From NCBI GenBank assembly GCA_034676385.1, contig JAUCCH010000055.1:1-40298 (forward strand): a stretch of 40,298 bases of DNA, in the 5' to 3' direction. Positions within the stretch are counted from its first letter, which is position 1. Every line of letters begins with the position of its first letter. The stretch comes from Leucobacter sp. Lineage in GTDB: Bacteria; Actinomycetota; Actinomycetes; Actinomycetales; Microbacteriaceae. The notes below the pieces were generated by a model. The model was not told where the DNA came from and searched no databases. It worked only from the letters and a program-made list of their open reading frames with translations. A program made the translations under genes and the position numbers. This document shows, one piece after another, positions 1,375 through 40,298 of the stretch.

Positions 1375-1791
1375 CTAAGCACTGACAAGAAGCTGGTCAC
1401 GTCGCAGATAAGCATAGCTTTGTGGTGCCGTTGAATTCGGTTCGACCTCTTTGAGCGGAAGCGGCTGCTCAAAAGACATAGCTTCCTCGACAACGATGGC
1501 AAATGCAATCTCTTTGCCCTCGTAGTAACTGAAAAATGCTGCCTGTCCAATTACCCCTGATTCGCCATAGCGAGCCCAGATAGCTTCGGGACTATCTTCA
1601 ACAATCTCATCAATATTGAATGTGCCTAGCACGCGGCTCACGGGCGCAGTCGCGTAAACGATCACAGTTTTTATGTCTGCAGCGAGCCGGCGCTTACGAA
1701 ATTCGACTGTCTTGGCGCCTTGAAAGATCGCTTCAGCGTACTCAGGGTGAATCGACATCAGTGCGACGCGTTCAGTTGCTGCTCGACCCAT
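1375..1791 (-). CDS. ASCH (PUA-like) domain protein
   Basis: 138 aa. 'LMSIHPEYAEAIFQGAKTVEFRKRR ... IAFAIVVEEAMSFEQPLPLKE' fits the ASCH beta-barrel pattern. It overlaps the upstream EVE gene by 34 nt on the same strand, consistent with an operon. Confidence 0.5.
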   Translation of the reverse strand: MGRAATERVALMSIHPEYAEAIFQGAKTVEFRKRRLAADIKTVIVYATAPVSRVLGTFNIDEIVEDSPEAIWARYGESGVIGQAAFFSYYEGKEIAFAIVVEEAMSFEQPLPLKEVEPNSTAPQSYAYLRRDQLLVSA

Positions 1792-2204
1792 GCAATACCC
1801 TCCGTGTTCTTGACTTCGACCACTGACTGAGGAGCAGCCTTGACCACCTTATTCGATATCAGCTCCGAAAGTCCCCAAGTTGGTATCATGAACCGATCAT
1901 GTCTAGACAAAATCGTCAAGACAGATCGCTTCCACCTTCCATGGAGCGCTTCGATCTCCACCGGAGAATATACGGTTCGCTTGAACGAGAGCGCCGCAGT
2001 TGCAGATGGGTCGATACCCTTATGGGATCCTTCAGCGATACCGACCGCGCTTACCGCACCATCACCCTTACGAGTTCCTTGAGAACGGTAGAAGAGAAGG
2101 AGCGCTCCAGGAGGAATGCTCGATTGAGGTGCTCTACACAGGTAAGCCTTTCGTATCGCATTACCGTGCGCACGAGTGTTTGTGTTTAATCCGGGAAGAA
2201 GCAT
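1758..2204 (-). CDS. EVE (PUA-like) domain protein
   Basis: 'NTRAHGNAIRKAYL...PPGALLLFYRSQGTRKGDGAVSAVGIAEG ... ILSRHDRFMIPTWGLSELI' parallels the EVE/THYN1 core (WDGVRNYQARNFLRxM..GDxxFFYHS....IVGIAEIV ... LFTRQRLSIQPLTxEEF). The first beta-strand appears to be missing. Confidence 0.5.
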   Translation of the reverse strand: MLLPGLNTNTRAHGNAIRKAYLCRAPQSSIPPGALLLFYRSQGTRKGDGAVSAVGIAEGSHKGIDPSATAALSFKRTVYSPVEIEALHGRWKRSVLTILSRHDRFMIPTWGLSELISNKVVKAAPQSVVEVKNTEGIAWVEQQLNASH

Positions 2205-2255
2205 GCTCCCTGAAGCACCGGGGACTTCCGCGTCTGGAAAAGTCCGTCATACCAC

Positions 2256-3287
2256 TCAGGGACGATTGGAACTACGAATATTGGTTGCCCGGCTCGAATC
2301 GCAGGAGGCCCATATTTGATATGAAACTATCCAGCCCAGTAGAGCTTTGACCTTCAGCGGGATCAAGGGTCTTGACATAGAAGCTTTCATCGCAGGTCTT
2401 CTTCCAGCGAGTCTGAATCCAAACTCAGGCAGGAACTCGGCCAACCGGTCCTTCTTATCTTTAACCTCAACAAAGATGTCACTCGGTCGTCCTGGCTCAC
2501 GTTCTGCCCAACGAAGAACGGCTTTTAAGAGCAATTCACCAAGACGACGCCCGTTTGCATGGTCGGCAACTTTGAATGTCGAGAGCTTGATCGCGCGTCG
2601 AAGGTTGTCGCTTGGATGTTCATCGGAAATCTTAAGAAGTGCAATGCCGTCGTAGGTTCCATCAGCTTGCCGAATAACCCAGCAGCGACGATTCACAGCG
2701 TCCCTTTTCAGCCGCCCTAGCCATGCGTCAAAATCAGGTGCATAATCTTCTCGCAAGCCGTCAAAGATGGATTGCGATGGATCAAGATTGTACGCAGGAA
2801 AAACCTCTACTTGCGGCGGCGGTAGCGGTGCCTCAGGATGCCAGAGGTTAAGCCGGTGTGCTGCTTCATCCGGACGGAGCACCCTTGGTTCGTGGCCAAG
2901 TTGAATTGCGCGAGAACGTAACTTCCTATCGTTCGTGACAAGAAAGTCCACAGCACCAATATGTAGCGCTGAGAGTATTCGTGCATCCCGTTGGTCGTTA
3001 TCGTTCAGATTTAATGGGTAGCAATCCCAAACCTCATCGGGCACTTGGGTTTCTTCTAGGGCCGCATACTTCCTAAAGGCAGCAAGGTTTTGCCGTCGAT
3101 GGGCCGGATCCCTTGTTTGCGAAAGGTCATCGCTTGATGCAGGGTGAACCCAAACTGTGTGCCCGTGCTTCGTTGCATGACTCAGAAAACGACTGACATG
3201 AGGCTGCACTCGTTCAAGTCCACCAGCGAAAGGCTCAGCTGCAATGATCACATTGGTATCGATCAAGAATGACATCGCTCGCTGCAT
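2256..3287 (-). CDS. PIN-domain nuclease fused to a C-terminal GNAT acetyltransferase domain
   Basis: N-terminus 'MSFLIDTNVIIAAEP ... NDQRDARILSALHIGAVDFLVTNDRKL' carries the PIN acidic-residue layout (D in IDTN, DARIL, VTND). The C-terminus 'CWVIRQADGTYDGIALLKI ... FKVADHANGRRLGELLLKAVLRWAE ... RLAEFLPEFGFRLAG' matches GNAT motifs A/B. A possible alternative start is the Met 4 codons downstream (MSFLID). Confidence 0.6.
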   Translation of the reverse strand: MQRAMSFLIDTNVIIAAEPFAGGLERVQPHVSRFLSHATKHGHTVWVHPASSDDLSQTRDPAHRRQNLAAFRKYAALEETQVPDEVWDCYPLNLNDNDQRDARILSALHIGAVDFLVTNDRKLRSRAIQLGHEPRVLRPDEAAHRLNLWHPEAPLPPPQVEVFPAYNLDPSQSIFDGLREDYAPDFDAWLGRLKRDAVNRRCWVIRQADGTYDGIALLKISDEHPSDNLRRAIKLSTFKVADHANGRRLGELLLKAVLRWAEREPGRPSDIFVEVKDKKDRLAEFLPEFGFRLAGRRPAMKASMSRPLIPLKVKALLGWIVSYQIWASCDSSRATNIRSSNRP

Positions 3288-3463
3288 ATAGCCTCCCTCG
3301 CTGGAGCTCTTCCCCCTAGGCTACCGGGGCCTAGAACTTTATTGAATCGCTCGATCTTCAGAATGCCAGTAGCCCGCCTGAAAGCTCTATGCTCTCGCCG
3401 CGAGCAATGCGCATATCCCTCAAGTCCTGCCGGCTATTTCATAGCCCGCAGCTTTCGGCACAC

Positions 3464-3784
3464 TTAGACAGCTAGTGCGGGTGAAACGCCTAAGTTTTCA
3501 ACAGTGATAAACACGGTGTTGGCGTTCTCTTGATTCGTGTAGTTCCTCTTGGGAACTCGCTCAGACTCAAACTGGGCAAGTACCGTCGGGCGCGAGAGCA
3601 CTCTATTTGACTCGGCGAGTAATTCATTCGAATTGGCAAGCCCTCTATTTGACTCCGCGAGATCCTCCAGCTGTTTCCACGCAAACATGAGTAGCACTAC
3701 AGCGACAATGACAGCTTCAAACGAGCAAACCGCCTGCCATTCGTCGGCAGTCGGGAAACCATCAAATCGCCACCATTCAGACAT
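3464..3784 (-). CDS. small hypothetical protein (one predicted TM helix plus a repeated LAESNR coiled segment); weak call
   Basis: ATG at 3784..3782 lies 6 nt outside the IS3 copy 1 end. The product has 'AVIVAVVLLMFAW' and a duplicated ~20-bp DNA repeat (CTCTATTTGACTCNGCGAG x2). The ORF-track version (3464..3895) starts inside the IS and is probably artefactual there. Confidence 0.2.
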   Translation of the reverse strand: MSEWWRFDGFPTADEWQAVCSFEAVIVAVVLLMFAWKQLEDLAESNRGLANSNELLAESNRVLSRPTVLAQFESERVPKRNYTNQENANTVFITVENLGVSPALAV

Positions 3785-3891
3785 AGATTGTATGGGCTGT
3801 GTCAAGTTTCGTAGACGTGAGAACGCTTGATTATTGATTACGGGCTGAAGATCAGGCCACAGCCCTTTCCGCTGCCTGGAGGTTTGAACGG

Positions 3892-4761
3892 TCAAAGAAC
3901 GCCTGCATCACCGACATCGGGGTGCGATACCCCGAGGGTGGAGTGGCGACGCTTCCGGTTGTAGAACACCTCAATATATTCAGCAACCGCAAGCCTTGCC
4001 CTCGCCCGGGTGGCATAGTGGTGATGATGCCAATGCTCGTTCTTCAGCGAAGCAAACCAGCTTTCGGCGACGGCATTGTCCCAGCACACCCCAGTTCTTC
4101 CCACTGAGAGTCTCAGATCCATCAGCCTGGCCGCGTCAGCGAATTCAGCAGACGTGTATTGGGCACCTTTGTCGCTGTGAAATATTGCGTTCCCGGCGGT
4201 GTAGCCGGCGCGATGCGCCATCGTGAGCGCATCAACCATCAGCGACGTTCTCATATGGGCTGCCGTCTGCCATCCGACCACCATTCTTGTGGTCAGATCA
4301 ATCACCGTCGCAAGATACAGCCAACCTTCGCCAGTTTTGAGGTACGTGATGTCGCCCACGAGGCAGGTTGTTGGAACCGGGGGTGTGAACCGACGCCCGA
4401 TGAAGTCACGCCGGATACCGGCATCGGGCGCGGGGATCGTGGTTCGTTTCGTGGCGCGCGGCTGAATCCCTTGAATCCCGAGCTCTCGCATGAGCTGCCA
4501 CACCAGCCATGGAGACACCGTCATCCCTTGAGCAGCAAGTTCGGCATGAATGCGCCGCACCCCAAGGATTTTGTGGTGATCGATCCAGATCTTCCCGATC
4601 AGATCGGAGAGCTCTTGCCGCCGTATCTTTCGGGCATCAGGTGCTGCATGTCGCCGCTGCTTCCATGCGTAAAAACCCGCACGATGCACTTTCAGCAGTC
4701 GACACATGAACGTGACAGCATGTTGGCCTTCTTCGTGTTCGATCAGCTCGTACTTGCGCAC
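3892..4761 (-). CDS. IS3-family transposase OrfB (rve/DDE integrase core); the C-terminus is altered by a 1-nt insertion relative to copy 2
   Basis: It is identical to copy 2 OrfB apart from one M/V substitution until '...RKRRHSTLG'. Then copy 1 has CCCC (3930-3933) where copy 2 has GGG on the other strand, giving 'VSHPDVGDAGVL*' instead of the consensus-like 'YRTPMSVMQAFF...'. Confidence 0.8.
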   Translation of the reverse strand: MRKYELIEHEEGQHAVTFMCRLLKVHRAGFYAWKQRRHAAPDARKIRRQELSDLIGKIWIDHHKILGVRRIHAELAAQGMTVSPWLVWQLMRELGIQGIQPRATKRTTIPAPDAGIRRDFIGRRFTPPVPTTCLVGDITYLKTGEGWLYLATVIDLTTRMVVGWQTAAHMRTSLMVDALTMAHRAGYTAGNAIFHSDKGAQYTSAEFADAARLMDLRLSVGRTGVCWDNAVAESWFASLKNEHWHHHHYATRARARLAVAEYIEVFYNRKRRHSTLGVSHPDVGDAGVL

Positions 4762-5066
4762 TACCGCTGTTCCTTCGCGAAGAAGGCCGCCGCTTTTTTT
4801 AGGAACGTGTTTTCCTCACGCAACCGGTTGATCTCACGTTGCATCTCGTGCGGGTCTTGCGAGTAAGGGTCAGGGGTTCGGCGGGCTGACCCTGAACCAG
4901 TGCCATGCGTGCCGGTTGCTTTCCCAACCCATTTCCCGAGCGTTGATTCGTTGATTTCTAGGTCGCGGGCGACCTGGGCTCGTGTTTTGCCGAGCTCGGT
5001 TACCATGCGCACAGCGTCGGCTTTGAACTCGTCACTGAACTCTCGACGGGGTCGGAGTGTAGACAT
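4761..5066 (-). CDS. IS3-family transposase OrfA (HTH)
   Basis: The 101-aa product is identical to copy 2 OrfA. An A7G (T7 on this strand, 4794-4800) slippery run lies near the 3' end, where OrfB overlaps in the -1 frame. Confidence 0.85.
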   Translation of the reverse strand: MSTLRPRREFSDEFKADAVRMVTELGKTRAQVARDLEINESTLGKWVGKATGTHGTGSGSARRTPDPYSQDPHEMQREINRLREENTFLKKAAAFFAKEQR

Positions 5067-5243
5067 CTGATGGGATTCCTTCCAATGGAGTTCTCCTGTC
5101 TACAACAAGCATGACACCTCAATTGATGACTGGAGGTAGCAATCATGCCCTGCCTGATTGGCCACCACCCATGCAGTTTCCTACTAGATGGGCTCACGAA
5201 CATGGTAACGGGGGAACTATTCACGAACAGCCCGGCGCGGAAA

Positions 5244-6144
5244 CTAGTAGATGACTCCGTCCGGACCAACCCTAGGCGGCGCAAGCCGCTCTCGAGACGC
5301 AACCAAAGCGGCTGTGGCTGCACCATGAGCAGATAGGTCAAGCAGAGTGTTCTGAAAAGTGGCACCAGTACCTTCACGCTCTATCCGGAAGAGACAGGGA
5401 AGTCCGGAATCGCGCAAGACATTCTTGGCCTCTCGACTGAACAGCTCAAGAGCAGACGTTATCTGCACTTCCAACGCAATATACGCGCGAGCGATCAAGG
5501 TCTTCAACCCTTCAGTTGCCATTCGGATGAAGCTGATGAAGTCAGTCTCAACAGCTTCCCCCCCAGAAGTCGGCGAGCACTTCGCCGACTTTCGGTCCAC
5601 GCGCTTGCAAGAGATCACTGAGTTGCAACTTCAGCGTGGTCTCAGAGCCGTGCTCACCATGTTTGACACGCACGCTGACGAAGTTGAGAATCGTGTGGCC
5701 ATGTTCAGATGCGTTACGTAGTTCCCAGACGGTGCGGTAGTAGCCATCTTTGTCGTACGCATTCTCAAACACGGAACAGACTGCCCTCTTCGCGTCTGCA
5801 CCGAAGTGAACCTCGGCTTCATGCTCAATGCGGCGACGCAGCGCAACGTATTGCGATACCCAGCTCTCCACCAGTCGTCCTACTTCACTCCTGAAGGCAC
5901 CGTCGGATCCCATGCGCTGGGCAGCACCATTCCCAGAGAGAGCAACCAGCAATTCGTTGGCAGAGTCAATCGCGCGGCTGGTCACGGTCTGTCCTGAGAA
6001 AGCGTGAATGGCGAGAACGGCGCTAGTGAGGTCCTCAGCTTCCTGGTCAGAGAGCGGATGATCTTCGACGTAGGTGTAAGAGGCCGGAGCCTCGGGAAGC
6101 GCGACGAGGCGCCCAACGTACCAGACTGACTCAGAGCTGCGCAT
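5244..6144 (-). pseudogene. hypothetical ~313-aa protein with an Rx4H (HEPN-like) motif, frameshifted at a C7/G7 homopolymer
   Basis: Two overlapping ORFs (5548..6144 and 5244..5618) join into one protein if the 7-C run at 5558-5564 is read as 6. The product contains 'WELRNASEHGH' (R-N-x-x-x-H). Confidence 0.5.
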
Positions 6145-7147
6145 TTCTCCATACTGGACGATGCGGAGCTTGAAATGTATTGGGCACTCCGCTCGTCCTC
6201 ATAACCAGTTCCCCGGATGCATCGTCACCGCCTGGAACTCATTACTGCGGTTCAAGTCAGGGCGCCCGCTTGGAGTCCCGAGTAAACCTGGAGTTGACTC
6301 TTGACGGGGTACTTGGGGACTGAATGCATGTATCAACTTACTTTGTCGCATTGCACCCCTGGTCTCACGCGCCTGCGATGTCAAGATGCCGGTTTACCCC
6401 TTGGGCGAGAATACTCCTAGCTCTAGCGTCAACGGCTGGATCGCAGGAGCATCCTATCCCTCAAAATGTGTCGATCGTACCTGTAGCGTGTAGAGACCGT
6501 CAATATTGAGACGCCTTTCGCCGGATAGAGGTTCGCACGAACAAGGCCTGATCGGGCATGATGTCATCATGCTCATTGTCGTACTTGACTCCAATACCCT
6601 TCACTCGGATGCCTGGCTCACAGGACCACATGGTGGGAAGCTGGTCGATCTAGCCGCAGAGGGCCGCGTTCGAGTCGTAGTGCCCGAAGTCGTGCGGGAT
6701 GAAATCCTCCGTCAGCGCCGCGAAGCTGTCAAGAAAGCATGTAAAGAGGCCGACAAGGCATTGACCGCGATGGAGAAAGCCGGTGTCGATGTGAGTGAGT
6801 CGAAAGTCCGCCTGCAGGAGACCTTCGACAGGATAGACAGCGAACTCGATGACGCCTTCACGGAGCTCTTTGAAAGAGTCGGCGTCGTGATGGAGCCCAC
6901 CCCCGGGGTGAACGTCAACAAATATGTGGAACGCGACCTGGCACGTCGGCGTCCGTTTCTCGAAACTGAGCAGGAGCAGAAAAAGAAGAGTTTCGGCTTC
7001 AGAGATGTGGTGATCTGGGAAACAGTTCTCTCGGTTTTCGACGGAGCTGATCCAGGAGATACCATTCTGTTCGTCACCGCTGACAAAGGCTTCCTCGAGC
7101 GCGGTGAGCCCACGGTCCACCGTGACCTCCTCGAGGACCTCGATGAG

Positions 7148-8239
7148 CTAGTGTCCCGCGCCGGTAGTTCGTTGTAATAGTCTTTTGAGGGATTCGAGGA
7201 TCTGTTCGGCGGGCTTGGTCCAAACGAAGGGCTTCGGATTCTCGTTCCATCCTTTAACCCAGGAGCGGATATCGTTCTCCAGCGCCCGGACGCTGCGGTG
7301 ATCGGAGCGTTGGAGTAAGTCGGCAGTGATGTACGCGAAGAACCGCTCGACTTGGTTGATCCAGGACGAGTACGTCGGAGTGAAGTGCAGGTGGAACCGG
7401 GGATGCTTCTCCATCCAGGTGACGATGCTCGGGCTCTTGTGGGTGCTGTAGTTGTCGCAGACCAGATGCACGTCGAGGTGCTGGGGGACTGCGGCGTCGA
7501 TCTTGGCCAGAAACTTCCTGAACTCGATCGCCCGGTGGCGGCGGTGGATGCTGGAGATCACGGTGCCATCGGCGGTGTTGAATGCCGCGAACAGACTGGT
7601 CGTGCCATGCCGGACGTAGTCATGGGTACGTTTTTCGGGCATGCCCGGCATCATCGGGAATGCCGGCTGTGATCTCGCCAGGGCCTGCACCTGCGATTTC
7701 TCGTCGACGCAGTAGACGACGGCCGCTTCGGGCGGGTCAAGGTACAGGCCGACGATGTCGTAGACCTTGTCCACGAATTGTGGGTCGTTGGAGAGTTTGA
7801 ACCCGTCTTCTCGGTGCGGTTTCAGCTCGAACGCTTTCCAGATTCGACCGATCGTGGACTTCGACAATCCGGAGCGTTCGGCCATCTTCGCCCGCGACCA
7901 ATGCGTGGCATTCCTCGGCGTCGACTCCAACGTGGCCACGACCACATCTTCGACCTGTTCGGCCGTGATCGTCGCCGGCCGCCCCGGCCGCGGCTCATCG
8001 ACCAGGCCATCCAGACGAGCCTCCAAGAACCGAGCGCGCCATTTGCTGACCGTGTTCGTCGAGCAGCCCACCTGTGCAGCCACCGTCTTGTTGTCCAGGC
8101 CTCCGCCGCAGCCGAGCACGATCCGGGACCGCAACGCCAACGCTTGTGAGGACTTCGCCCGGCGGGACCAGCGCAGCAGCTGCTCGCGCTCCTCGTTACT
8201 CAGGATCAAGTCGGCTTTCGGGCGTCCTGTTCTCGGCAT
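7148..8239 (-). CDS. IS630-family transposase (HTH + DDE)
   Basis: The 363-aa product has an N-terminal HTH (STNTVSKWRARF), a DDE core (VYCVDEKSQ ... LVCDNYSTHKS ... WINQVERFF) and the typical length. Its stop codon TAG is completed by the host-side C of the CTAG target. Confidence 0.85.
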   Translation of the reverse strand: MPRTGRPKADLILSNEEREQLLRWSRRAKSSQALALRSRIVLGCGGGLDNKTVAAQVGCSTNTVSKWRARFLEARLDGLVDEPRPGRPATITAEQVEDVVVATLESTPRNATHWSRAKMAERSGLSKSTIGRIWKAFELKPHREDGFKLSNDPQFVDKVYDIVGLYLDPPEAAVVYCVDEKSQVQALARSQPAFPMMPGMPEKRTHDYVRHGTTSLFAAFNTADGTVISSIHRRHRAIEFRKFLAKIDAAVPQHLDVHLVCDNYSTHKSPSIVTWMEKHPRFHLHFTPTYSSWINQVERFFAYITADLLQRSDHRSVRALENDIRSWVKGWNENPKPFVWTKPAEQILESLKRLLQRTTGAGH

Positions 8240-24602: not shown

Positions 24603-25649
24603 ATGGATCTCACACTTGTTTGGTTTCTCGCTGTCGGGGTGTTCCTCATCGGATACTTCGTTCTAGACGGCTTCGACTTTGGCGTAGGAATGGCACTGCC
24701 GTTCCTGGGCAAAGACAACGTCGATCGTCGACTCATTATCAACACGATTGGTCCTGTCTGGGACCTGAATGAGACTTGGCTCATCGTTGCCGGGGCATGC
24801 TTGTTTGCGGCGTTCCCCGAGTGGTATGCCACCATGTTCTCGGGCTTCTATCTCGCTCTGTTGTTGATCCTCGTCGCCCTAATTTTGCGCGGAGTCTCGT
24901 TCGAGTTTCGGCACCAGGGAAAGGGCCCTCGCTGGACGGGCTGGTTTGACGGCTTCATCTTCTGGGGTTCGCTCGTGCCACCGCTGCTCTGGGGCACCGC
25001 GTTCGCAAACTTGGTGCAGGGACTTCCAATAGTGCCGATGGAGACGGGTGGTTGGTTGTACGAGGGCACGTTGCTCACGCTTCTTAACCCTTACGGTCTA
25101 CTCGGTGGTATCACAGTGACCTTGCTTTGCTTCACCCACGGTCTTGTATTCATTGCGCTGAAGACCTCAGGTGACATGCGCGACCGGGCACGAGCGCTTG
25201 CAACGAAAGTCGGGATCGTGACGATCGTGGTAGCCGCAGGATTCCTTGCCTGGACGGTGCTCATGCGGGTCGGTGATCCGAACTTCTTCGCGGTTGCACT
25301 GATATCAGCGCTTGCAGCGATTTCTCTGGTCGCCGGGCTGGTCTACAACCTGATGGGCCGAGAAGGTTGGGCGTTCACATTCAACGCGTTGACAATTGCA
25401 TTCGCGCTGCTGGCGATCTTCATGGCGCTCTACCCATATGTGATGATCTCGAACATCGACCCTGCCTACTCAATGAGTATTCAGGGCGCGGCCAGCTCGC
25501 AGATGACTCTCGAGCTCATGACCTGGGTTGCGGTATTCACGTTACCGCTCGTGCTCGCGTACCAGGCTTGGACCTACTGGATCTTCCGTAAGCGGCTCTC
25601 GCGTGCACACATTCCCGCGGATGAGCCAGTCATAGTTAACTCACCCTAA
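24603..25649 (+). CDS. cydB: cytochrome bd ubiquinol oxidase subunit II
   Basis: 'MDLTLVWFLAVGVFLIGYFVLDGFDFGVGM' matches the CydB N-terminus. It lies immediately downstream of cydA. Confidence 0.9.
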   Translation: MDLTLVWFLAVGVFLIGYFVLDGFDFGVGMALPFLGKDNVDRRLIINTIGPVWDLNETWLIVAGACLFAAFPEWYATMFSGFYLALLLILVALILRGVSFEFRHQGKGPRWTGWFDGFIFWGSLVPPLLWGTAFANLVQGLPIVPMETGGWLYEGTLLTLLNPYGLLGGITVTLLCFTHGLVFIALKTSGDMRDRARALATKVGIVTIVVAAGFLAWTVLMRVGDPNFFAVALISALAAISLVAGLVYNLMGREGWAFTFNALTIAFALLAIFMALYPYVMISNIDPAYSMSIQGAASSQMTLELMTWVAVFTLPLVLAYQAWTYWIFRKRLSRAHIPADEPVIVNSP

Positions 25650-25659
25650 GATAGATCTG

Positions 25660-27294
25660 ATGAAGCCCCTCGACCCGAGACTCCTGCGCTATGCCAGCGG
25701 TGCCCGCACCGTCCTCGGTGTCGGGGGGCTACTCGGAGTAGTTCGCACGCTTGCGGTCATCACTTGGTGCTGGTGCATCGCTCAATCGCTCGCCCTCCTA
25801 GTGCTACCGGTGCTTGGTGGCATGGGCGGTGCCGCTGGCCGAGTAGCAGAAGGCGCGTATTCCGCGAGCACGCTTCCGTGGCTTGTCACCGTGGCATTGG
25901 TGGCGATCCTCGTACGCTCGGCCGCAAGCTGGGGAATGGATGCACTTGCGGCGCGAGGCGCGGTGCGCGTGAAATCGCAACTGCGTGAAGCGGCACTCAA
26001 CGCAATTGATTCTCGTTCACCAGAGGCCCTGAATTCGCGGTCTGATGCGAGCGGGGCAACCGCACTCGGTCGCGGTCTTGACGCTCTTGATGGATATTTC
26101 TCCGGCTACCTGCCTCAGTTGATCCTTACGATCTGCGCGACGCCATTACTGGTGCTTGCAGTGCTCCTCGCTGATCCATTGAGCGGGCTGGTGGTGGTGA
26201 TCGTCTTTCCGGTGATCCCGGTGTTTATGATCCTCATAGGCCTAGCGACTCAGGGCGTGCAGAAGAAGCAGTGGGAGCAGCTGCAGCACCTTTCTGGATC
26301 CTTCCTTGATGTAGTTGAAGGCCTCACGACGCTGAAGATCTTTCGCCGAGAAGCTCGGCAAGTCCAGCGGATTACTCGTGAAACAGGGGAATATCGCAGT
26401 CGAACCATGCAGGTGCTTCGCGTCACATTCCTTTCCGGGTTCGTGCTTGATCTCGCGGGCACGTTCTCGATCGCACTCGTAGCAGTGACGGTCGGTACAA
26501 GGCTAGTTTCAGGTGAATTTCCCCTTGCGCTTGGCCTTTTCGTGCTGCTCCTGCTGCCCGAAGCGTTCATACCGATTCGTGCGGTTGGTACGGCCTTCCA
26601 CGCGTCAACCGAAGGGTTGGCAGCGGCAGAGCAGGTATTTGAAATTATCGAGGATCAGGGCGCAGACGATTCTCGTCCTCTCAATCTCGTGACAAGCAAC
26701 TCAATTTCCTTTGACCGAGTGAGCATTGAGCGAGGCGCGCACACGGTTGGGCCGGTCTCGCTTCAGGTTCAGCCCGGTGAAATTGTGGCTCTCGTGGGCC
26801 CTTCCGGAACGGGAAAGAGCACCCTGGTGTCTGCGTTGCTCGGTTTTGCGTTGCCATCAAGCGGAGTGCTGGCTCGCCCCGAAACGCTCGCCTGGGTTGG
26901 GCAGCGGCCGGGTCTCCTACATGGGACTATCGCCGAAAATGTGGCGCTGGGTGATGAGCTGGCTGATCCTCGAATGGTGCAACGAGCGCTCGAATCCGTG
27001 GGCCTCGCTGAAATCTCTCAAGACCGCGAACTCGGAGCTTAAGGGCTCGGTCTTTCAGGAGGCCAAGCGCAGCGCGTCGCGATTGCACGAGCGCTGTATC
27101 GTGCTTGGCGACTTGATGCCGCGGCGCTGGTACTTGATGAGCCGAGCTCCGCGCTGGACGCCGAAAGTGAGGCGCGAATTGCAGGTGTGCTGCGTGCGGA
27201 GGCTGCGGCTGGGCGGGCTGTGTTGCTCATCAGCCACCGAACCGCGTTGATAGAAAGTGCGGATCGCGTGGTGCGCATGGGGGAGCTTTCGTGA
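25660..27294 (+). pseudogene. cydD: ABC transporter CydD (thiol reductant exporter needed for bd oxidase assembly) with an in-frame TAA at 27040-27042
   Basis: A TM domain is followed by Walker A 'VALVGPSGTGKST'. The ORF stops at '...RELGA*' but continues in the same frame with 'GLGLSGGQAQRVAIARAL ... LVLDEPSSALD ... LLISHR' (signature, Walker B, H-loop) to a TGA overlapping the cydC GTG start (GTGA). Confidence 0.75.
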
Positions 27295-33909: not shown

Positions 33910-35265
33910 GTGGTCGTGCGTGTAGTGAACTGGCCGCGCGAAACCGCATCGGTCGCGCGCAGTTTGGCGAGGGCTGACGCCTGGTTCTGGCTTGATGGCA
34001 CCGCGGCGGAGCCCGGCGGCTCTGCGGGAGTCAGCTATCTCGGCGAAACGGCCAAGGTTTTGCATTCCTCTAGCGGCAACGAACGCGAGTTTTTGCGAGA
34101 CTTCGCCGTACACTTCGAGACCGAGCTAGACAGCACTGGCTGGGTCGTTGCGCTGGGTTACGAATTTGGTGTGGGGCTCATGGGCGAGGATCCCGCGACC
34201 GATGATGTTCCGCCGGCTTTCGCGCTGCGACCCTCGACCGTGCTCGTGCTTAACCATTCGAATCAGACCGCGGAGCTCCGTGGCGAGAGCGACGCGGCGA
34301 TTGATGCTTGGCTCGGGAAGCATGGCTCCGCCTTCGAGGAGCAACCCATTCGGGACCTGCCGCTAGAGGCCATAGGGGTGTCTGGTTCATTCGTCGGCCC
34401 ACGAGCCGCACCCGTTTCAACCTGGCGCCGCAGCGATGCTCAGTACCTTGAGGATGTTCGGAAATGCAAGCATGCTATTCACGAAGGTGATGCCTACGTG
34501 CTCTGCCTCACCGATACCGCCGAGATTGCCGAACTCGCCGTCGACCCACTGAGCCTGTATCTCGAGATACTTGCGGGTGGGGCTGCGGTTCGCGGGGCAG
34601 TGATCGTGGCCGGTGATCGTGCTCTGGTGAGTACAAGCCCAGAGCGGTTCTTGAGCAAACGGGGCAAGAGCTTAGCGACGCACCCGATCAAGGGCACACG
34701 GGCAAGGGGGGACACACCGGAGGCTGACGCGATCCTCGCCAACGAGCTTGCTGCCGACCCGAAAGAGCGCTCAGAAAACCTGATGATTGTCGACCTCATG
34801 CGCAATGATCTCAGCAGGGTGTGCATTCCCGGCAGCGTGGATATCGAGGGGTTTCTTCGAGTGGAAAGCCACCCTCGCGTGCACCAGCTCGTGAGCTCGG
34901 TGATTGGTCAGATTCGCGACGATGCGGACATGATTGATGCGATCGAGGCGTGTTTTCCGGGAGGATCGATGACCGGCGCACCGAAGCGACGGGCAGTACA
35001 GCTACTTTCGGCACTGGAAAGCGACCCAAGAGGGCTGTATTCGGGCTGCTTCGGGTGGCTCGGCGACGATGGCGACGCTGAGCTCGCCATGAGTATTCGG
35101 TGCGTTGAATTGCGGGGAAAGCCGGGATTCGGGCAGCGGGCGTTCGTGGGTGCTGGTGGGGGAGTTACCTCCGACAGCGTGCCCACCCGGGAGCTGGCGG
35201 AGAAACAGCTAAAGTCCGCTTCTCTGCTCGCTGCTCTGGAGCGGATCGATTCCGAGTATCCTTGA
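33910..35265 (+). CDS. pabB: aminodeoxychorismate synthase component I (chorismate-binding enzyme family)
   Basis: '[20 protein letters not shown] ... [23 protein letters not shown]...[24 protein letters not shown]' matches chorismate-utilising enzyme motifs. At 451 aa it fits PabB better than TrpE. Confidence 0.75.
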
Positions 35266-35317
35266 ACGGTGTGTGCTCGCGTGCAGCGAGCCGGTTTTTC
35301 GATGTTTCGAGGTATGT

Positions 35318-37970
35318 GTGAACGAGCAGCAAGCAAACGCCACGACAGAGGTCGACGCGGAGGCTTATGACTTCCAGGCCATTCAAGACCGGTGGCTACC
35401 GGTCTGGGACGAGCTGAAGCCTTTCGAGGTGGGCAACGATCTTACGGGTGAGAAGCCAAAGAAGTACGTGCTTGATATGTTCCCGTACCCCTCCGGCGAC
35501 CTGCATATGGGTCACGCCGAGGCGTTCTGCTTTGGTGACGTGCTCGCCCGCTACTGGCGTGGGCGCGGCTATGACGTGCTGCACCCGATCGGTTGGGACA
35601 GTTTCGGTCTGCCCGCAGAGAACGCCGCAATCAAGCGAGGCATCGATCCTCGCGAGTGGACGTACGCAAATATCGCGCAGCAAAAGACGAGCTTCCGTGT
35701 GTACGCACCCAGCTTTGACTGGAGTAGGCAGCTGCACACGAGCGACCCCGAGTACTACAAGTGGAACCAGTGGCTGTTCCTCAAAATGTACGAAAAGGGC
35801 CTTGCGTACCGTAAGGCAAGCTGGGTCAACTGGGATCCGGTAGACCAGACGGTGCTTGCAAACGAGCAGGTGCTCGCCGATGGCACCTCGGAGCGCTCGG
35901 GCGCGATGGTGGTTAAGAAGAAGCTGACCCAGTGGTACTTCAGGATCACCGACTACGCGGATCGTCTGCTCGATGACCTGGATGCGCTCGAGGGCCAGTG
36001 GCCCACCAAGGTGCTGAGCATGCAGCGCAACTGGATCGGCAGGTCCGAGGGCGCTGAGGTCGAGTTCGAAATTGAAGGACCCGAGGACCGGGTTCCGGTC
36101 TTTACGACCCGCCCCGATACTCTATTCGGCGCAACATTTATGGTGGTGGCTCCAGACAGCGATCTCGCTTCGGACTCGCCGCAAGTGCGTCCGAAGAAGT
36201 TCAGATGCAGTTTGCGGAATACCTCACTGCGACGCAGAAGCAGAGCGAGATCGATCGCCAGACGGCAGATCGCGACAAGACCGGCGTCTTCCTCGATCAC
36301 TTCGCGATTAACCCCGTTAACGGCGAACGTATTCCCGTGTGGGCATCCGATTACGTGCTCGCCAAGTATGGTCACGGCGCCATCATGGCCGTCCCCGCTC
36401 ACGATCAGCGTGACCTTGATTTTGCACTGAAGTTTGAGCTGCCTGTGCGCGTTGTTGTTGAGGTGCGTGATGAGGACGGCGAAGTACTGCCTAACCCGCA
36501 GACCATGCAGGCATAGCAACGGCCGGCGACGGCCGGATCGTGAACTCCGGTGATCTTGATGGCTTGGGCAAGGTTGAAGCAATCGCCAAGGCGATCGAAC
36601 TGCTCGAAGCGCGCGGCACGGGGCGGGCGACGAAGACCTACCGCCTGCGTGACTGGTTGATCTCGCGCCAGCGTTACTGGGGTACCCCGATTCCGATTCT
36701 TCACGGTGCTGAAGACGGGAATGCGGGCGAGATGCGCCCAGTTGAGCAGAGCAAGCTACCTGTTCGTCTCCCCGCAACTGAGGGACTCGACCTGAAGCCC
36801 AAGGGATCCTCGCCCCTGGGTGCCGCAACCGAGTGGTCGAACGTGACGGACGCAGACGGCCACGCTTGGACCCGAGACCCAGACACGATGGATACTTTCG
36901 TCGATAGTTCCTGGTACTTCCTGCGTTTCCTTTCGGCGACTGACGACACCCAGGCCTTCGACCCTGCGCTCGTCAACGCCTGGGGTCCGATCGACCAGTA
37001 TGCGGGTGGCGTCGAGCACGCAATTCTGCATCTGCTCTACTCACGCTTCATTACGAAGGTGCTGCACGATCTCGGCTATCTCGATTTTGAAGAACCGTTT
37101 ACGGCACTGCTGAACCAGGGCATGGTGCTGCAAGACGGCGCGAAGATGTCGAAGTCGAAGGGCAACCTCGTCGAGTTCGCTTCGGAGCTGCAGGCGCACG
37201 GTGCCGACGCGCTGCGCGTAACTCTCGCGTTTGCTGGCCCTCCCGAGGACGACATTGACTGGGCCGATGTTTCGGTGCAGGGTTCGGCGAAGTTCCTCGC
37301 ACGTGCTTGGCGTGTAGCTGGGGACGTCTCGAGCGACGTGGGTGTCGACTACTTTCGCTGGTGGTGACGCGGGGCTTCGGCGCCACACGCACAAGTTACT
37401 CGCCGATGCGCCCGGCTTGGTCGAACACTACAAGTTCAACGTGCTTGTCGCTCGCCTCATGGATCAGGTCAACGTGACCCGTAAGGCTATCGACTCTGGC
37501 GTGGGCTCGGCTGATCCCGCTGTGCGCGAGTCCGCAGAAGCGATCGCGATGATCCTCTCACTCTTCGCTCCCTACGCTGCTGAAGACATGTGGGCGAAGC
37601 TCGGACATGAGCCAACGGTTGCGCTTCAGGTGTGGCCTTCTGCAGACGAATCGTTGCTCGTGGAGAACGAGGTCACAATGGTCGTGCAGGTTGACGGCAA
37701 GGTGCGCGAGCGCCTCACGCTTCCGCCTCGGTCAGCGAGGCTGAGGCTGAGGCAGCTGCGATGGCATCTGAGTCAGTGAAGCGCGCGATCGGTGACCGCC
37801 AGATTGTGAACCTGATTGTGCGAGTTCCAGAAGATCGTGAGCATCGCGACGAAGCCATAACTTCGATCTGCGATCGTTATGAGCGGCCCGCATCCTCGGA
37901 TTTGAGGGTGCGGGTCGTTCGTTCTGTACGGGAAACTTATCTCCCGCGCTTGGCGACAAAAAGTACGTAA
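35318..37970 (+). pseudogene. leuS: leucyl-tRNA synthetase split into five ORFs by four single-nucleotide deletions (as assembled)
   Basis: The HMGH class-I motif ([15 protein letters not shown]) and KMSKS are present. LeuS-like sequence continues across ORFs 35273..36430, 36205..36516, 36540..37367, 37342..37779 and 37761..37970, with frame changes near 36175, 36508, 37350 and 37725. Each is consistent with one missing base. The 3' tail past ~37850 overlaps holA and is probably a read-through artefact. Confidence 0.85.
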
Positions 37971-38960
37971 CGCTCGAGCGCGTAGACAGGGTCTCTGCTG
38001 CCGCCCTTCAGCGCAAGCTCGGTCTCCGCAGCGAGGTCGATCGCTTTGGCGAGATCTCCCTCGGTCCATCCGCGGGTTTTTCTTCTGCGCACGCTCGACC
38101 ATCCACGGTGCCATGCCGAACGTTGAAGCAAGCTCACCGGAGCTGCCTCGAGCACCGTAGACCCTGGCCATTCCCCGGACTTTCATGTTGAGGGCTGCCA
38201 GCATTGGGATAGGGTAGGTGCCGGTGCTCAAAGCCTGGCGCAATAGTACGAGCGCATCTGCTGCGCCGCCAGCCGTAGCCGCGTCAGCAACCTTGAACGC
38301 ACCTGCCTCGACCCGACCCTCGGTTGAGCGTTCAATGTCCGATTCGGTCAGGCGCTTGCCCACATCAGAACAAGGACCTGTTCAATGGCACCTGCCAGCT
38401 CACCCAGCCCGCCCTGATACGCAGCGACAAGCGCGCGAAGTGCGTTTTGGCGCAATCTGCGCCTCAAGACACCGAAACTCGGACTGTGCAAAGCCGAGCC
38501 TGTCGCTGTCCTTCTTTACCTCGGCGCAGACAATCTCGATGGCACCGATTGAGCCTCCCGCGTCGCCGCGCACGGCATCGAGCAAGGCCTTGCCTCGCTG
38601 ACCGCTCGCATGCCGAAGCACCAGAGTGGTGTCATCTGCGGGCTGCGTGAGGTAGCGTTTCGCATCCTCGAGAAAGGCATCACTCGCCTTTTCGACGCCC
38701 TCAACTCGTATGAGTCTTGGTTCGGCGAAGAGTGACGGGCTCGCGACCGTAAAGAGCTCGCCCTGTCCGTAGCTCGCTGCATCGATGTCGTGAATTTCGA
38801 CTGCCGCGTCGTTTGACCGGAGCATTTCGCGAATCGTTCTTGTCGCGCGATCTGCAAGAAATTGCTCGGGCCCACTGATCAGGACTACGGGCGCAGGACG
38901 CGCCTCGTTATACCCGATCTTGATGATCTTTGCCTTGCTGGTTTTCGTTGCCGCTGCCAC
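37773..38960 (-). pseudogene. holA: DNA polymerase III delta subunit, split into two ORFs by a frameshift near 38365-38400
   Basis: The N-terminal 'VVLISGPEQFLADRATRTIREML' and C-terminal 'GAFKVADAATAGGAADALVLLRQALSTGTYPIPMLAALNMKVRGMARV' match HolA. The GTG start at 38960 has an in-frame TGA just upstream. Confidence 0.7.
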
Positions 38961-39030
38961 GTTTCAAGCCTAGTCTGAGGTGTCATGCTTGTTGTAGACA
39001 GGAGAACTCCATTGGAAGGAATCCCATCAG

Positions 39031-39336
39031 ATGTCTACACTCCGACCCCGTCGAGAGTTCAGTGACGAGTTCAAAGCCGACGCTGTGCGCATGGTAACCG
39101 AGCTCGGCAAAACACGAGCCCAGGTCGCCCGCGACCTAGAAATCAACGAATCAACGCTCGGGAAATGGGTTGGGAAAGCAACCGGCACGCATGGCACTGG
39201 TTCAGGGTCAGCCCGCCGAACCCCTGACCCTTACTCGCAAGACCCGCACGAGATGCAACGTGAGATCAACCGGTTGCGTGAGGAAAACACGTTCCTAAAA
39301 AAAGCGGCGGCCTTCTTCGCGAAGGAACAGCGGTAG
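39031..39336 (+). CDS. IS3-family transposase OrfA (HTH)
   Basis: Identical to copy 1 OrfA. Confidence 0.85.
   Translation: MSTLRPRREFSDEFKADAVRMVTELGKTRAQVARDLEINESTLGKWVGKATGTHGTGSGSARRTPDPYSQDPHEMQREINRLREENTFLKKAAAFFAKEQR
39297..39304 (+). other. A7G slippery run for programmed -1 ribosomal frameshifting (OrfA to OrfAB)
   Basis: 'CTAAAAAAAGCG' lies 30 nt before the orfA stop. The -1 frame is open from here into orfB (KKSGGLLREGTAVV-RKYELIEH...), as in IS3/IS911-type elements. Confidence 0.6.
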
Positions 39337-40244
39337 TGCGCAAGTACGAGCTGATCGAACACGAAGAAGGCCAACATGCTGTCACGTTCATGTGTCGACT
39401 GCTGAAAGTGCATCGTGCGGGTTTTTACGCATGGAAGCAGCGGCGACATGCAGCACCTGATGCCCGAAAGATACGGCGGCAAGAGCTCTCCGATCTGATC
39501 GGGAAGATCTGGATCGATCACCACAAAATCCTTGGGGTGCGGCGCATTCATGCCGAACTTGCTGCTCAAGGGATGACGGTGTCTCCATGGCTGGTGTGGC
39601 AGCTCATGCGAGAGCTCGGGATTCAAGGGATTCAGCCGCGCGCCACGAAACGAACCACGATCCCCGCGCCCGATGCCGGTATCCGGCGTGACTTCATCGG
39701 GCGTCGGTTCACACCCCCGGTTCCAACAACCTGCCTCGTGGGCGACATCACGTACCTCAAAACTGGCGAAGGTTGGCTGTATCTTGCGACGGTGATTGAT
39801 CTGACCACAAGAATGGTGGTCGGATGGCAGACGGCAGCCCATATGAGAACGTCGCTGGTGGTTGATGCGCTCACGATGGCGCATCGCGCCGGCTACACCG
39901 CCGGGAACGCAATATTTCACAGCGACAAAGGTGCCCAATACACGTCTGCTGAATTCGCTGACGCGGCCAGGCTGATGGATCTGAGACTCTCAGTGGGAAG
40001 AACTGGGGTGTGCTGGGACAATGCCGTCGCCGAAAGCTGGTTTGCTTCGCTGAAGAACGAGCATTGGCATCATCACCACTATGCCACCCGGGCGAGGGCA
40101 AGGCTTGCGGTTGCTGAATATATTGAGGTGTTCTACAACCGGAAGCGTCGCCACTCCACCCTCGGGTATCGCACCCCGATGTCGGTGATGCAGGCGTTCT
40201 TTGACCGTTCAAACCTCCAGGCAGCGGAAAGGGCTGTGGCCTGA
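39336..40244 (+). CDS. IS3-family transposase OrfB (rve integrase core, DDE), intact copy
   Basis: The 302-aa product ends with the family-typical '...RKRRHSTLGYRTPMSVMQAFF'. The GTG start overlaps the orfA stop. Confidence 0.85.
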   Translation: MRKYELIEHEEGQHAVTFMCRLLKVHRAGFYAWKQRRHAAPDARKIRRQELSDLIGKIWIDHHKILGVRRIHAELAAQGMTVSPWLVWQLMRELGIQGIQPRATKRTTIPAPDAGIRRDFIGRRFTPPVPTTCLVGDITYLKTGEGWLYLATVIDLTTRMVVGWQTAAHMRTSLVVDALTMAHRAGYTAGNAIFHSDKGAQYTSAEFADAARLMDLRLSVGRTGVCWDNAVAESWFASLKNEHWHHHHYATRARARLAVAEYIEVFYNRKRRHSTLGYRTPMSVMQAFFDRSNLQAAERAVA

Positions 40245-40298
40245 TCTTCAGCCCGTAATCAATAATCAAGCGTTCTCACGTCTACGAAACTTGACACA

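Follow-up and report, generated by a model that had tools for sequence, protein, structure and literature searches.

The 40,298-nucleotide (nt) contig JAUCCH010000055.1 of Leucobacter sp. (Microbacteriaceae, assembly GCA_034676385.1), analyzed at its full length and referred to below as the window, carries near its start a minus-strand two-gene module composed of a PIN-GNAT-EVE fusion protein (gene A) and an ASCH-domain partner (gene B), an assignment that can be regarded as nearly certain. The module has already been described by comparative genomics, and the present locus is another instance of it: Bell, Wolf and Koonin (2020, BMC Biol 18:159; PMC7641849) describe a ‘(PIN)-GNAT-EVE + ASCH’ operon, crediting its earlier description to Iyer et al. 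(2013), and both window proteins match the PADLOC profiles of system PDC-M11. The initial annotation had instead read three consecutive same-strand genes for separate PIN-GNAT, EVE and ASCH proteins and knew of no described system of this composition. Three minus-strand open reading frames (ORFs) are indeed present, but ORF1 and ORF2 form a single match to PDC-M11A and are fragments of one gene, not separate genes. The EVE-type domain was correctly recognized; it forms the C terminus of the PIN-GNAT protein, from which insertions and deletions (indels) have severed it.

Profile searches carry the assignment. Along the 486 positions of the PDC-M11A profile (PDLC04421), ORF1 matches positions 1-288 (E = 4.9e-92) and ORF2 positions 353-485 (E = 2.5e-43), while ORF3, which is gene B, matches PDC-M11B (E = 1.9e-46) and directly follows A on the same strand. 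All four elements of the operon of Bell et al. are found, namely a PIN domain with its acidic residues, a central GNAT, a C-terminal EVE and an ASCH gene, so that domain order and ASCH partner both agree. The window departs from PDC-M11 in the three frame-breaking indels of A as sequenced, which may be an assembly artefact. PDC-M11 is itself a candidate phage-defense system only, and the literature found reports no defense phenotype for it. NCBIfam returned nothing useful for gene A and, for gene B, a sole match to the C-terminal domain of an L22 fusion protein.

The continuity of gene A is established by comparison with its relatives. A scan of one genome per species, covering 185,579 species genomes, yielded 157 relatives, and the locus counts given here come from the best 80, all of which match across the whole three-domain length. 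DNA alignments with the closest intact relatives (L082 and L083) place the frame breaks at 2404 (-1), 2329-2330 (+2) and 2238 (-1), all inside ~170 bp, and tblastn located them as well. The indels sum to zero, which brings ORF2 back into the frame of ORF1: the two ORFs share one frame with two stops between them (NRP*VV*RTF, asterisks marking the stops), and the other two frames of the interval encode KTCDESFYVKTLDPAEGQSSTGLDSF and FHIKYGPPAIRAGQPIFVVPIVPEWYDGLF. Read in its ancestral frames, the shifted segment encodes the conserved KTCDESFYVKTLDP...YGPPAIRAGQPIFVVPIVPEWYDGLFPD. The three-frame reconstruction of A is 88-89% identical to an intact 508-residue relative, P0001, at 100% coverage, and retrieves 533 homologs, the full-length ones measuring ~505-515 amino acids (aa).

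A naturally split variant, in which separate PIN-GNAT, EVE and ASCH proteins would act together, could appeal to the ATG start of ORF2 and to the collinearity and short spacing of the three ORFs (a 51-nt gap between ORF1 and ORF2, a 34-nt overlap between ORF2 and ORF3). Such a variant is highly improbable, however, as one ORF spans at least 470 of the 508 profile positions in 76 of the 80 related loci; of the remaining four, three run off a contig end and one is truncated. Furthermore, the final ~47 residues of ORF1 are out of frame while the alternative frames carry conserved family sequence, and ORF2 lacks both the first strand and helix of its domain barrel and a good ribosome-binding site at the proper distance. 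The coordinates of these elements and of the surrounding features are collected in Table 1.

Table 1. Features of the A-B module, with IS elements and small genes of the window.
Feature	Coordinates	Strand	Remarks
Gene A	1758-3287	minus	PIN-GNAT-EVE fusion, PADLOC PDC-M11A; broken by three indels as sequenced
ORF1	2256-3287	minus	343 aa as sequenced; PIN plus GNAT; final ~47 residues out-of-frame nonsense
ORF2	1758-2204	minus	148 aa; distal ~145 aa of the EVE-type domain
ORF3 (gene B)	1375-1791	minus	138 aa, intact; ZmASCH-type ASCH protein, PADLOC PDC-M11B
PIN nuclease domain	2922-3269	minus	residues 7-122 of A
GNAT acetyltransferase domain	2415-2759	minus	residues 177-291 of A
EVE-type PUA-like domain	1761-2330	minus	C-terminal ~190 aa of A
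Frame-shifted segment	2238-2404	minus	GNAT-EVE linker and first EVE strand
A/B overlap	1758-1791	minus	34 nt; 3' end of A with start of B
Shine-Dalgarno sequence GGAGG	1799-1803	minus	just upstream of the start of gene B
Shine-Dalgarno-like GGGAGG	3292-3297	minus	5 nt upstream of the gene A ATG; read from sequence
143-aa ORF	3464-3895	minus	upstream of A; no family match; 5' part overlaps the IS3 end (3798-3895)
IS3-family element	3798-5121	minus	upstream flank; orfA 4761-5066, orfB 3892-4761; Pfam rve, HTH_21, HTH_Tnp_1
Second IS3 copy	38976-40298		inverted; runs to the contig end
Possible IS1380-type transposase remnant	155-951	minus	three frames; contig start; weakly supported
198-aa gene	5548-6144		no family match; adjoins the PIN_12 gene
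PIN_12-domain gene	6506-7177		E = 8e-25; weak PtuB match
IS630-type transposase	7148-8239

Gene A is not the only broken gene in the window. The essential leucyl-tRNA synthetase (LeuRS) gene leuS (35213-37776, plus strand) is spread across at least three frames (pieces 35213-36427, 36495-37364 and 37318-37776), with conserved LeuRS motifs in different frames and the Pfam matches to the N-terminal part of tRNA-synt_1, its C-terminal part and Anticodon_1 falling in separate ORFs. A holA-like gene (37773-38960, minus strand), so assigned from a weak match to the C-terminal domain of DNA polymerase III delta, contains two in-frame stops 20 nt apart (RAG*AGRCH*TG), a pattern like that of gene A, and a cydD-like ABC transporter gene (25636-27291, plus strand) has an in-frame TAA at 27040-27042, directly before its GLGLSGGQ signature. 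Other long genes are intact, including pepN (883 aa) and the cydA, cydB and cydC-like neighbors of the cydD-like gene. An alternative genetic code was considered for the in-frame stops and rejected, since the stops mix TAA and TGA and most of the disruptions are frame changes. Short of a duplication, leuS cannot truly be a pseudogene, which means that patchy indel errors must be present in the contig, and because essential genes on the same contig are broken alike, the indels of gene A are probably assembly errors. The divergence of gene A from L082 leads in the same direction: differences at codon positions 1/2/3 number 22/10/95 before the shifted segment, 2/7/18 inside it (in the ancestral frame) and 11/12/47 after it. 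This third-position bias indicates that the gene was under purifying selection, and hence that the indels are either very recent or artefactual.

Loss of a toxin with retention of its antitoxin is a common decay path of toxin-antitoxin modules, and gene A could accordingly be a genuine pseudogene here, with the toxin inactivated, the antitoxin-like B intact and the module non-functional. B is indeed intact and 96% identical to its closest homolog, the patch is rich in insertion sequences (IS), and decayed relatives exist (L012, a truncated A without B, and P0063, a deletion fusion). The three indels themselves weigh on the same side: they cluster within 170 bp of A, and they lie outside long homopolymers and include one of +2, which is less typical of sequencing error. 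Clustered frame breaks of the same kind nevertheless occur in leuS and holA on this contig, where they cannot be real unless those genes are duplicated, and the two IS3 copies, 99.85% identical over 1324 bp in a self-blastn comparison, themselves differ by a single 1-nt gap. The shifted segment also shows no extra decay. Pseudogenization of A is thus unlikely, and an artefact is most likely the explanation, by roughly 3:1.

In its native form, gene A encodes a protein of ~510 residues (about 509-510). The PIN-GNAT fusion proposed at the outset was borne out by Pfam (PIN_3, E = 1.3e-5; Acetyltransf_1, E = 4e-4). The acidic tetrad of the PIN domain (D10, E18, D101 and D120) is present in full and conserved across the family: an alignment of 23 sequences shows no variation at D10, R103 or D120 and at least 90% conservation of E18 and D101. 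PIN_3 is detected in 16 of these 23 family members and Acetyltransf_1 in 19, with a best E of 4e-8. Within the GNAT domain, the beta4-alpha3 segment (GRRLGELLLK) and the FGF motif are both present; in the alignment, the segment G-x-[RK]-x-GELLLK and FGF are invariant or nearly so, the invariant positions being G250, E251, L252, L253, F289 and G290. Searched against PDB, the family profile matched Naa50 and other GNAT structures at positions 233-311 (best E = 9e-4). ORF2 has no Pfam match and was assigned to a PUA-like, EVE-type domain, whose structural neighbors include THYN1 (in complex with 5-methylcytosine DNA), the N-terminal domains of McrB, VcaM4I and PD-T4-3.

Gene B was rightly identified as an ASCH protein. 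While the Pfam ASCH match is weak (E = 2.8e-4), the profile of ZmASCH (PDB 5GUQ/5GUS) matches over its full length (E = 6e-29), and a structure model of B (pLDDT 93) retrieves ZmASCH in Foldseek with E = 6e-14, a TM-score of 0.83 and 34% identity. B carries the Glu-type GxKxxExR motif (GAKTVEFR; G25, K27, E30 and R32 conserved), and its invariant Tyr46 and the serine of its PQS motif (S125) correspond to ZmASCH Tyr47 and Ser128, whereas Lys53 of ZmASCH is replaced in B by a Ser that is followed by an Arg. The PDC-M11B profile also recognizes ZmASCH (E = 3e-29). The suggestion of a YqfB-like partner did not hold: the YqfB-type N4-acetylcytidine (ac4C) amidohydrolases are ASCH proteins of ~100 aa (YqfB itself, ~103 aa) with a GK[T/S]R octapeptide motif, whereas B has 138 aa and the Glu-type, ZmASCH-type motif, and Foldseek from B reaches YqfB at only E ~2e-3, versus 6e-14 for ZmASCH. 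A deacetylase role for B is possible, given the removal of ac4C from tRNA described below, though the comparison with YqfB lends it no support.

ZmASCH is the closest characterized relative of B. It is reported to bind single-stranded DNA and single-stranded RNA (ssRNA) and to cleave ssRNA, not DNA, in assays containing 10 mM MgCl2, and its Y47F variant is impaired in both binding and cleavage (PMC5615036). A 2026 preprint reports no activity of ZmASCH in vivo or toward the ac4C nucleoside, while all ASCH proteins tested, ZmASCH included, removed ac4C34 from E. coli tRNA in vitro. B keeps the residues of the cleft and not just a binding surface, which suggests that it acts on nucleic acid; judged from these residues, B would be an acetyl-mark eraser or an RNase and not a purely steric inhibitor. 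Unlike gene B, the ZmASCH gene of Zymomonas is not paired with a GNAT-EVE gene. An operon of that kind was considered for it and rejected, the upstream 375-aa gene being unlike A and without a Pfam or PADLOC match. This gene (L084:4825-5952, Zymomonas mobilis) lies 48 nt upstream of the ZmASCH gene on the same strand, an arrangement seen in 3/3 Zymomonas loci, and may encode an unrecognized partner of ZmASCH.

Genomic neighborhood analysis confirms the expected link between the fusion and an ASCH gene. Gene B, detected with a hidden Markov model built from B homologs, immediately follows A on the same strand at 77 of the 80 loci; two of the other three stop at a contig end, and the third is the truncated copy. 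In almost every one of these 77 loci the start codon of B falls within A, about 28-34 nt before its end (34 nt in the window), an overlap that suggests translational coupling. In the window a Shine-Dalgarno sequence precedes B. Promoter and terminator scans around the operon found sites no more numerous than in shuffled sequence. The loci include Actinomycetota, Myxococcota, Chloroflexota, Spirochaetota (including Leptospira noguchii), Planctomycetota, Verrucomicrobiota, Acidobacteriota and Armatimonadota. Clustering of the neighbors within 6 kb of the 77 loci revealed no conserved third gene, including the AAA_17 ATPase mentioned by Bell et al., and placed type I restriction-modification (R-M) genes near the module in a few cases (HsdM in 7, HsdR in 6 and HsdS in 5). 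In the closest intact relative, L082, the module immediately adjoins a complete Gabija pair (GajA, E = 6e-175; GajB, E = 1e-107; L082:5538-8227). Further upstream lie a VapC-type PIN gene and a pair of ATPase genes whose matches to the PADLOC mad3 and AriA profiles are partial and confined to the C terminus, and these surroundings look like a defense island.

Homologs also occur on mobile elements. They were found on 26 plasmids, including an archaeal (Halalkaliarchaeum) one, and in Methanothermobacter phage psiM100 (AF301375.1/NC_002628.3, 8233-9534), where the PIN-GNAT-EVE homolog is ORFD of ‘inserted fragment IFa’ (27% identical, with 87% of the query aligned). By sequence homology, the family reaches archaeal mobile elements. 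In P0063 (539 aa), the EVE-type domain of A is joined after AVGVA to the G.K.VEFRKRRLA... segment of B, making a single PIN-GNAT-(EVE/ASCH chimera) protein.

The setting of the Leucobacter copy is itself mobile. The module sits within the first 8 kb of the contig, which are rich in IS and give way to ordinary chromosomal genes, and the lower GC content first noted for this DNA is confirmed (0.52 in the patch versus 0.58 in the window). At third codon positions (GC3), A and B reach 0.46-0.48, versus 0.65 in pepN and 0.71 in cydA. Of the two IS flanks proposed, the IS3 copy stands, whereas the IS1380 remnant amounts to one weak DDE_Tnp_1_4 match (E = 0.017, 616-951), the other two pieces having no Pfam match. 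The window contains no tRNA gene that could mark an integration site. Low GC3, the flanking IS and the defense neighbors of the relatives support a horizontally acquired toxin-antitoxin or defense cargo. The general idea of such a module acting on nucleic acids, present from the start, agrees with the published in-silico predictions, with PDC-M11 and with the annotation of a phage homolog, GevT/GevA.

GevT/GevA was found by tblastn of phage genomes (E = 5e-12, residues 167-463 of P0001) in Escherichia phage PhiR47_2 (PV340567.1), where GenBank annotates a toxin of 357 aa and an overlapping antitoxin of 125 aa. In PADLOC, GevT scores against PDC-M11A with E = 2e-133 and GevA against PDC-M11B with E = 7e-52, with GevA 40% identical to the window's B (hhalign 99.9%), and the gene order and overlapping junction are the same as in the window. 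The phage pair differs in that GevT lacks a PIN domain and shares only ~25% identity with the GNAT-EVE part of A, and in its location between cI and kil in a lambdoid immunity region, the window pair being chromosomal. The study behind the GevT/GevA names was not found in the literature search.

Other toxin-antitoxin families resemble the module less closely. The precedent chemistry of GNAT toxins is the acetylation of charged tRNA. Toxins of the AtaT/TacT type are small single-domain GNATs with an upstream ribbon-helix-helix (RHH) or DUF1778 DNA-binding antitoxin. The AtaT/AtaR, TacT/TacA, KacT/KacA and ItaT/ItaR pairs share with the module a GNAT as putative toxic enzyme and a neutralizing partner; unlike these type II GNAT-RHH systems, however, the GNAT of A lies inside a 510-aa, three-domain protein whose partner is a downstream ASCH gene. 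VapBC systems consist of a ~130-aa PIN toxin with a small upstream antitoxin, whereas the PIN of A is the N-terminal domain of a fusion, and no small antitoxin gene lies upstream of A, where the sequence runs into the IS3 element. DarT/DarG offers an analogy only, that of a nucleic-acid-modifying toxin with an enzymatic eraser as antitoxin, should B reverse the modification made by A; it has no sequence or fold relationship to the module, and its chemistry is ADP-ribosylation versus a presumed acetylation.

A toxin-antitoxin or abortive-infection model is the favored reading of the A-B pair, at a probability of roughly 0.55. Gene A would provide the toxic effector: its EVE-type domain would dock the protein on nucleic acid, probably with a modified base, the GNAT domain would acetylate the target, either an aminoacyl-tRNA or a base in RNA or DNA, and the PIN domain would cleave RNA. 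B would restrain A in an antitoxin-like manner, either through binding to A or to that nucleic acid or through hydrolysis of the acetyl mark, and phage infection would upset the A/B balance and lead to growth arrest. Bell et al. (2020, PMC7641849) likewise predict a toxin-antitoxin or defense role, note a link to type I R-M and other defense systems, and state that none of these modules is experimentally characterized.

Several observations weigh against this model. The names toxin and antitoxin come from how GenBank annotates a homolog that lacks the PIN domain and is only ~25% identical, and the literature search found no experiment on any PIN-GNAT-EVE protein. The GNAT domain is detected as anticipated, but its motif A is only partly canonical (R-x-x-G-x-L, with Leu replacing the final Gly/Ala), and the Tyr usual as GNAT general acid is a Leu in gene A, so that acetyltransferase activity of A is not assured. 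Finally, the closest characterized relative of B is reported to be an RNase and not a deacetylase, which fits a second effector as well as an antitoxin. A more specific version, in which the module is a writer-reader-eraser acetylation system in conflict, is tentative: the GNAT would write the mark on a base amino group or an aminoacyl-tRNA, the EVE-type domain would select the target and B would deacetylate it, following a DarT/DarG-like logic, with the PIN domain adding RNA cleavage once the balance is lost. If this version were true, B would be the first ASCH-fold deacetylase antitoxin, and ZmASCH-type proteins would gain a physiological role.

The domain composition also allows a modification-dependent (type IV-like) restriction system or a DNA-base acetylation system, with no toxin-antitoxin logic, in which the EVE-type and ASCH domains would read modified bases of invading DNA, the GNAT would acetylate a DNA base and the PIN domain or a partner nuclease would destroy the target. 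According to Bell et al., acetylation of a DNA base by the GNAT was proposed by Iyer et al. (2013); Bell et al. further report ASCH fused to HsdS and helix-turn-helix (HTH) domains, arguing that this ASCH binds DNA (PMC7641849). Consistent with such a system, the structural neighbors of the C-terminal domain include readers of modified DNA bases that are fused to restriction enzymes, type I R-M genes are found repeatedly beside the module, and the TRIP4 ASCH domain binds double-stranded DNA. This alternative is nonetheless rather doubtful, as PIN domains are typically RNases, ZmASCH, a close homolog of B, cleaves ssRNA and not DNA, and the phage homolog is annotated as a toxin-antitoxin pair. 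A housekeeping pair unrelated to conflict, combining a tRNA or rRNA acetylation writer and its reader domain with an ASCH eraser, is very unlikely. Although ASCH proteins remove ac4C from tRNA in vitro (2026 preprint) and PUA-like domains are common in RNA-modification enzymes, the distribution of the family is sparse and patchy (157 relatives in all), the GC3 is foreign and the flanks are IS, homologs occur on plasmids and phages, relatives have defense-gene neighbors, and a PIN nuclease is fused to the writer. The toxin-antitoxin model remains the preferred reading of the pair.

Other small genes accompany the module within the IS-rich stretch. The PIN_12-domain gene and the adjoining 198-aa gene lie between the IS3 element and the IS630-type transposase and may represent another small toxin or defense gene. 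The 143-aa ORF upstream of A may be what an IS insertion has left of a longer gene, and it is not conserved at the corresponding place in L082 and L083.

The present copy adds little by itself, being a further instance of the family in a mobile-element-rich patch, with its large gene interrupted, probably by assembly errors. It does carry a practical lesson, in that the three-gene reading is an artefact and gene calls elsewhere on the contig need caution too. The family, in turn, brings together four domains directed at nucleic acids, with PIN as the nuclease, GNAT as the writer, the EVE-type domain as the reader and ASCH as a possible eraser or RNase, in a tightly coupled pair conserved across many bacterial phyla, archaeal plasmids and phages. 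The target of this pair, and the possible reversal of an acetyl mark by its ASCH partner, are of real interest for toxin-antitoxin and anti-phage biology.

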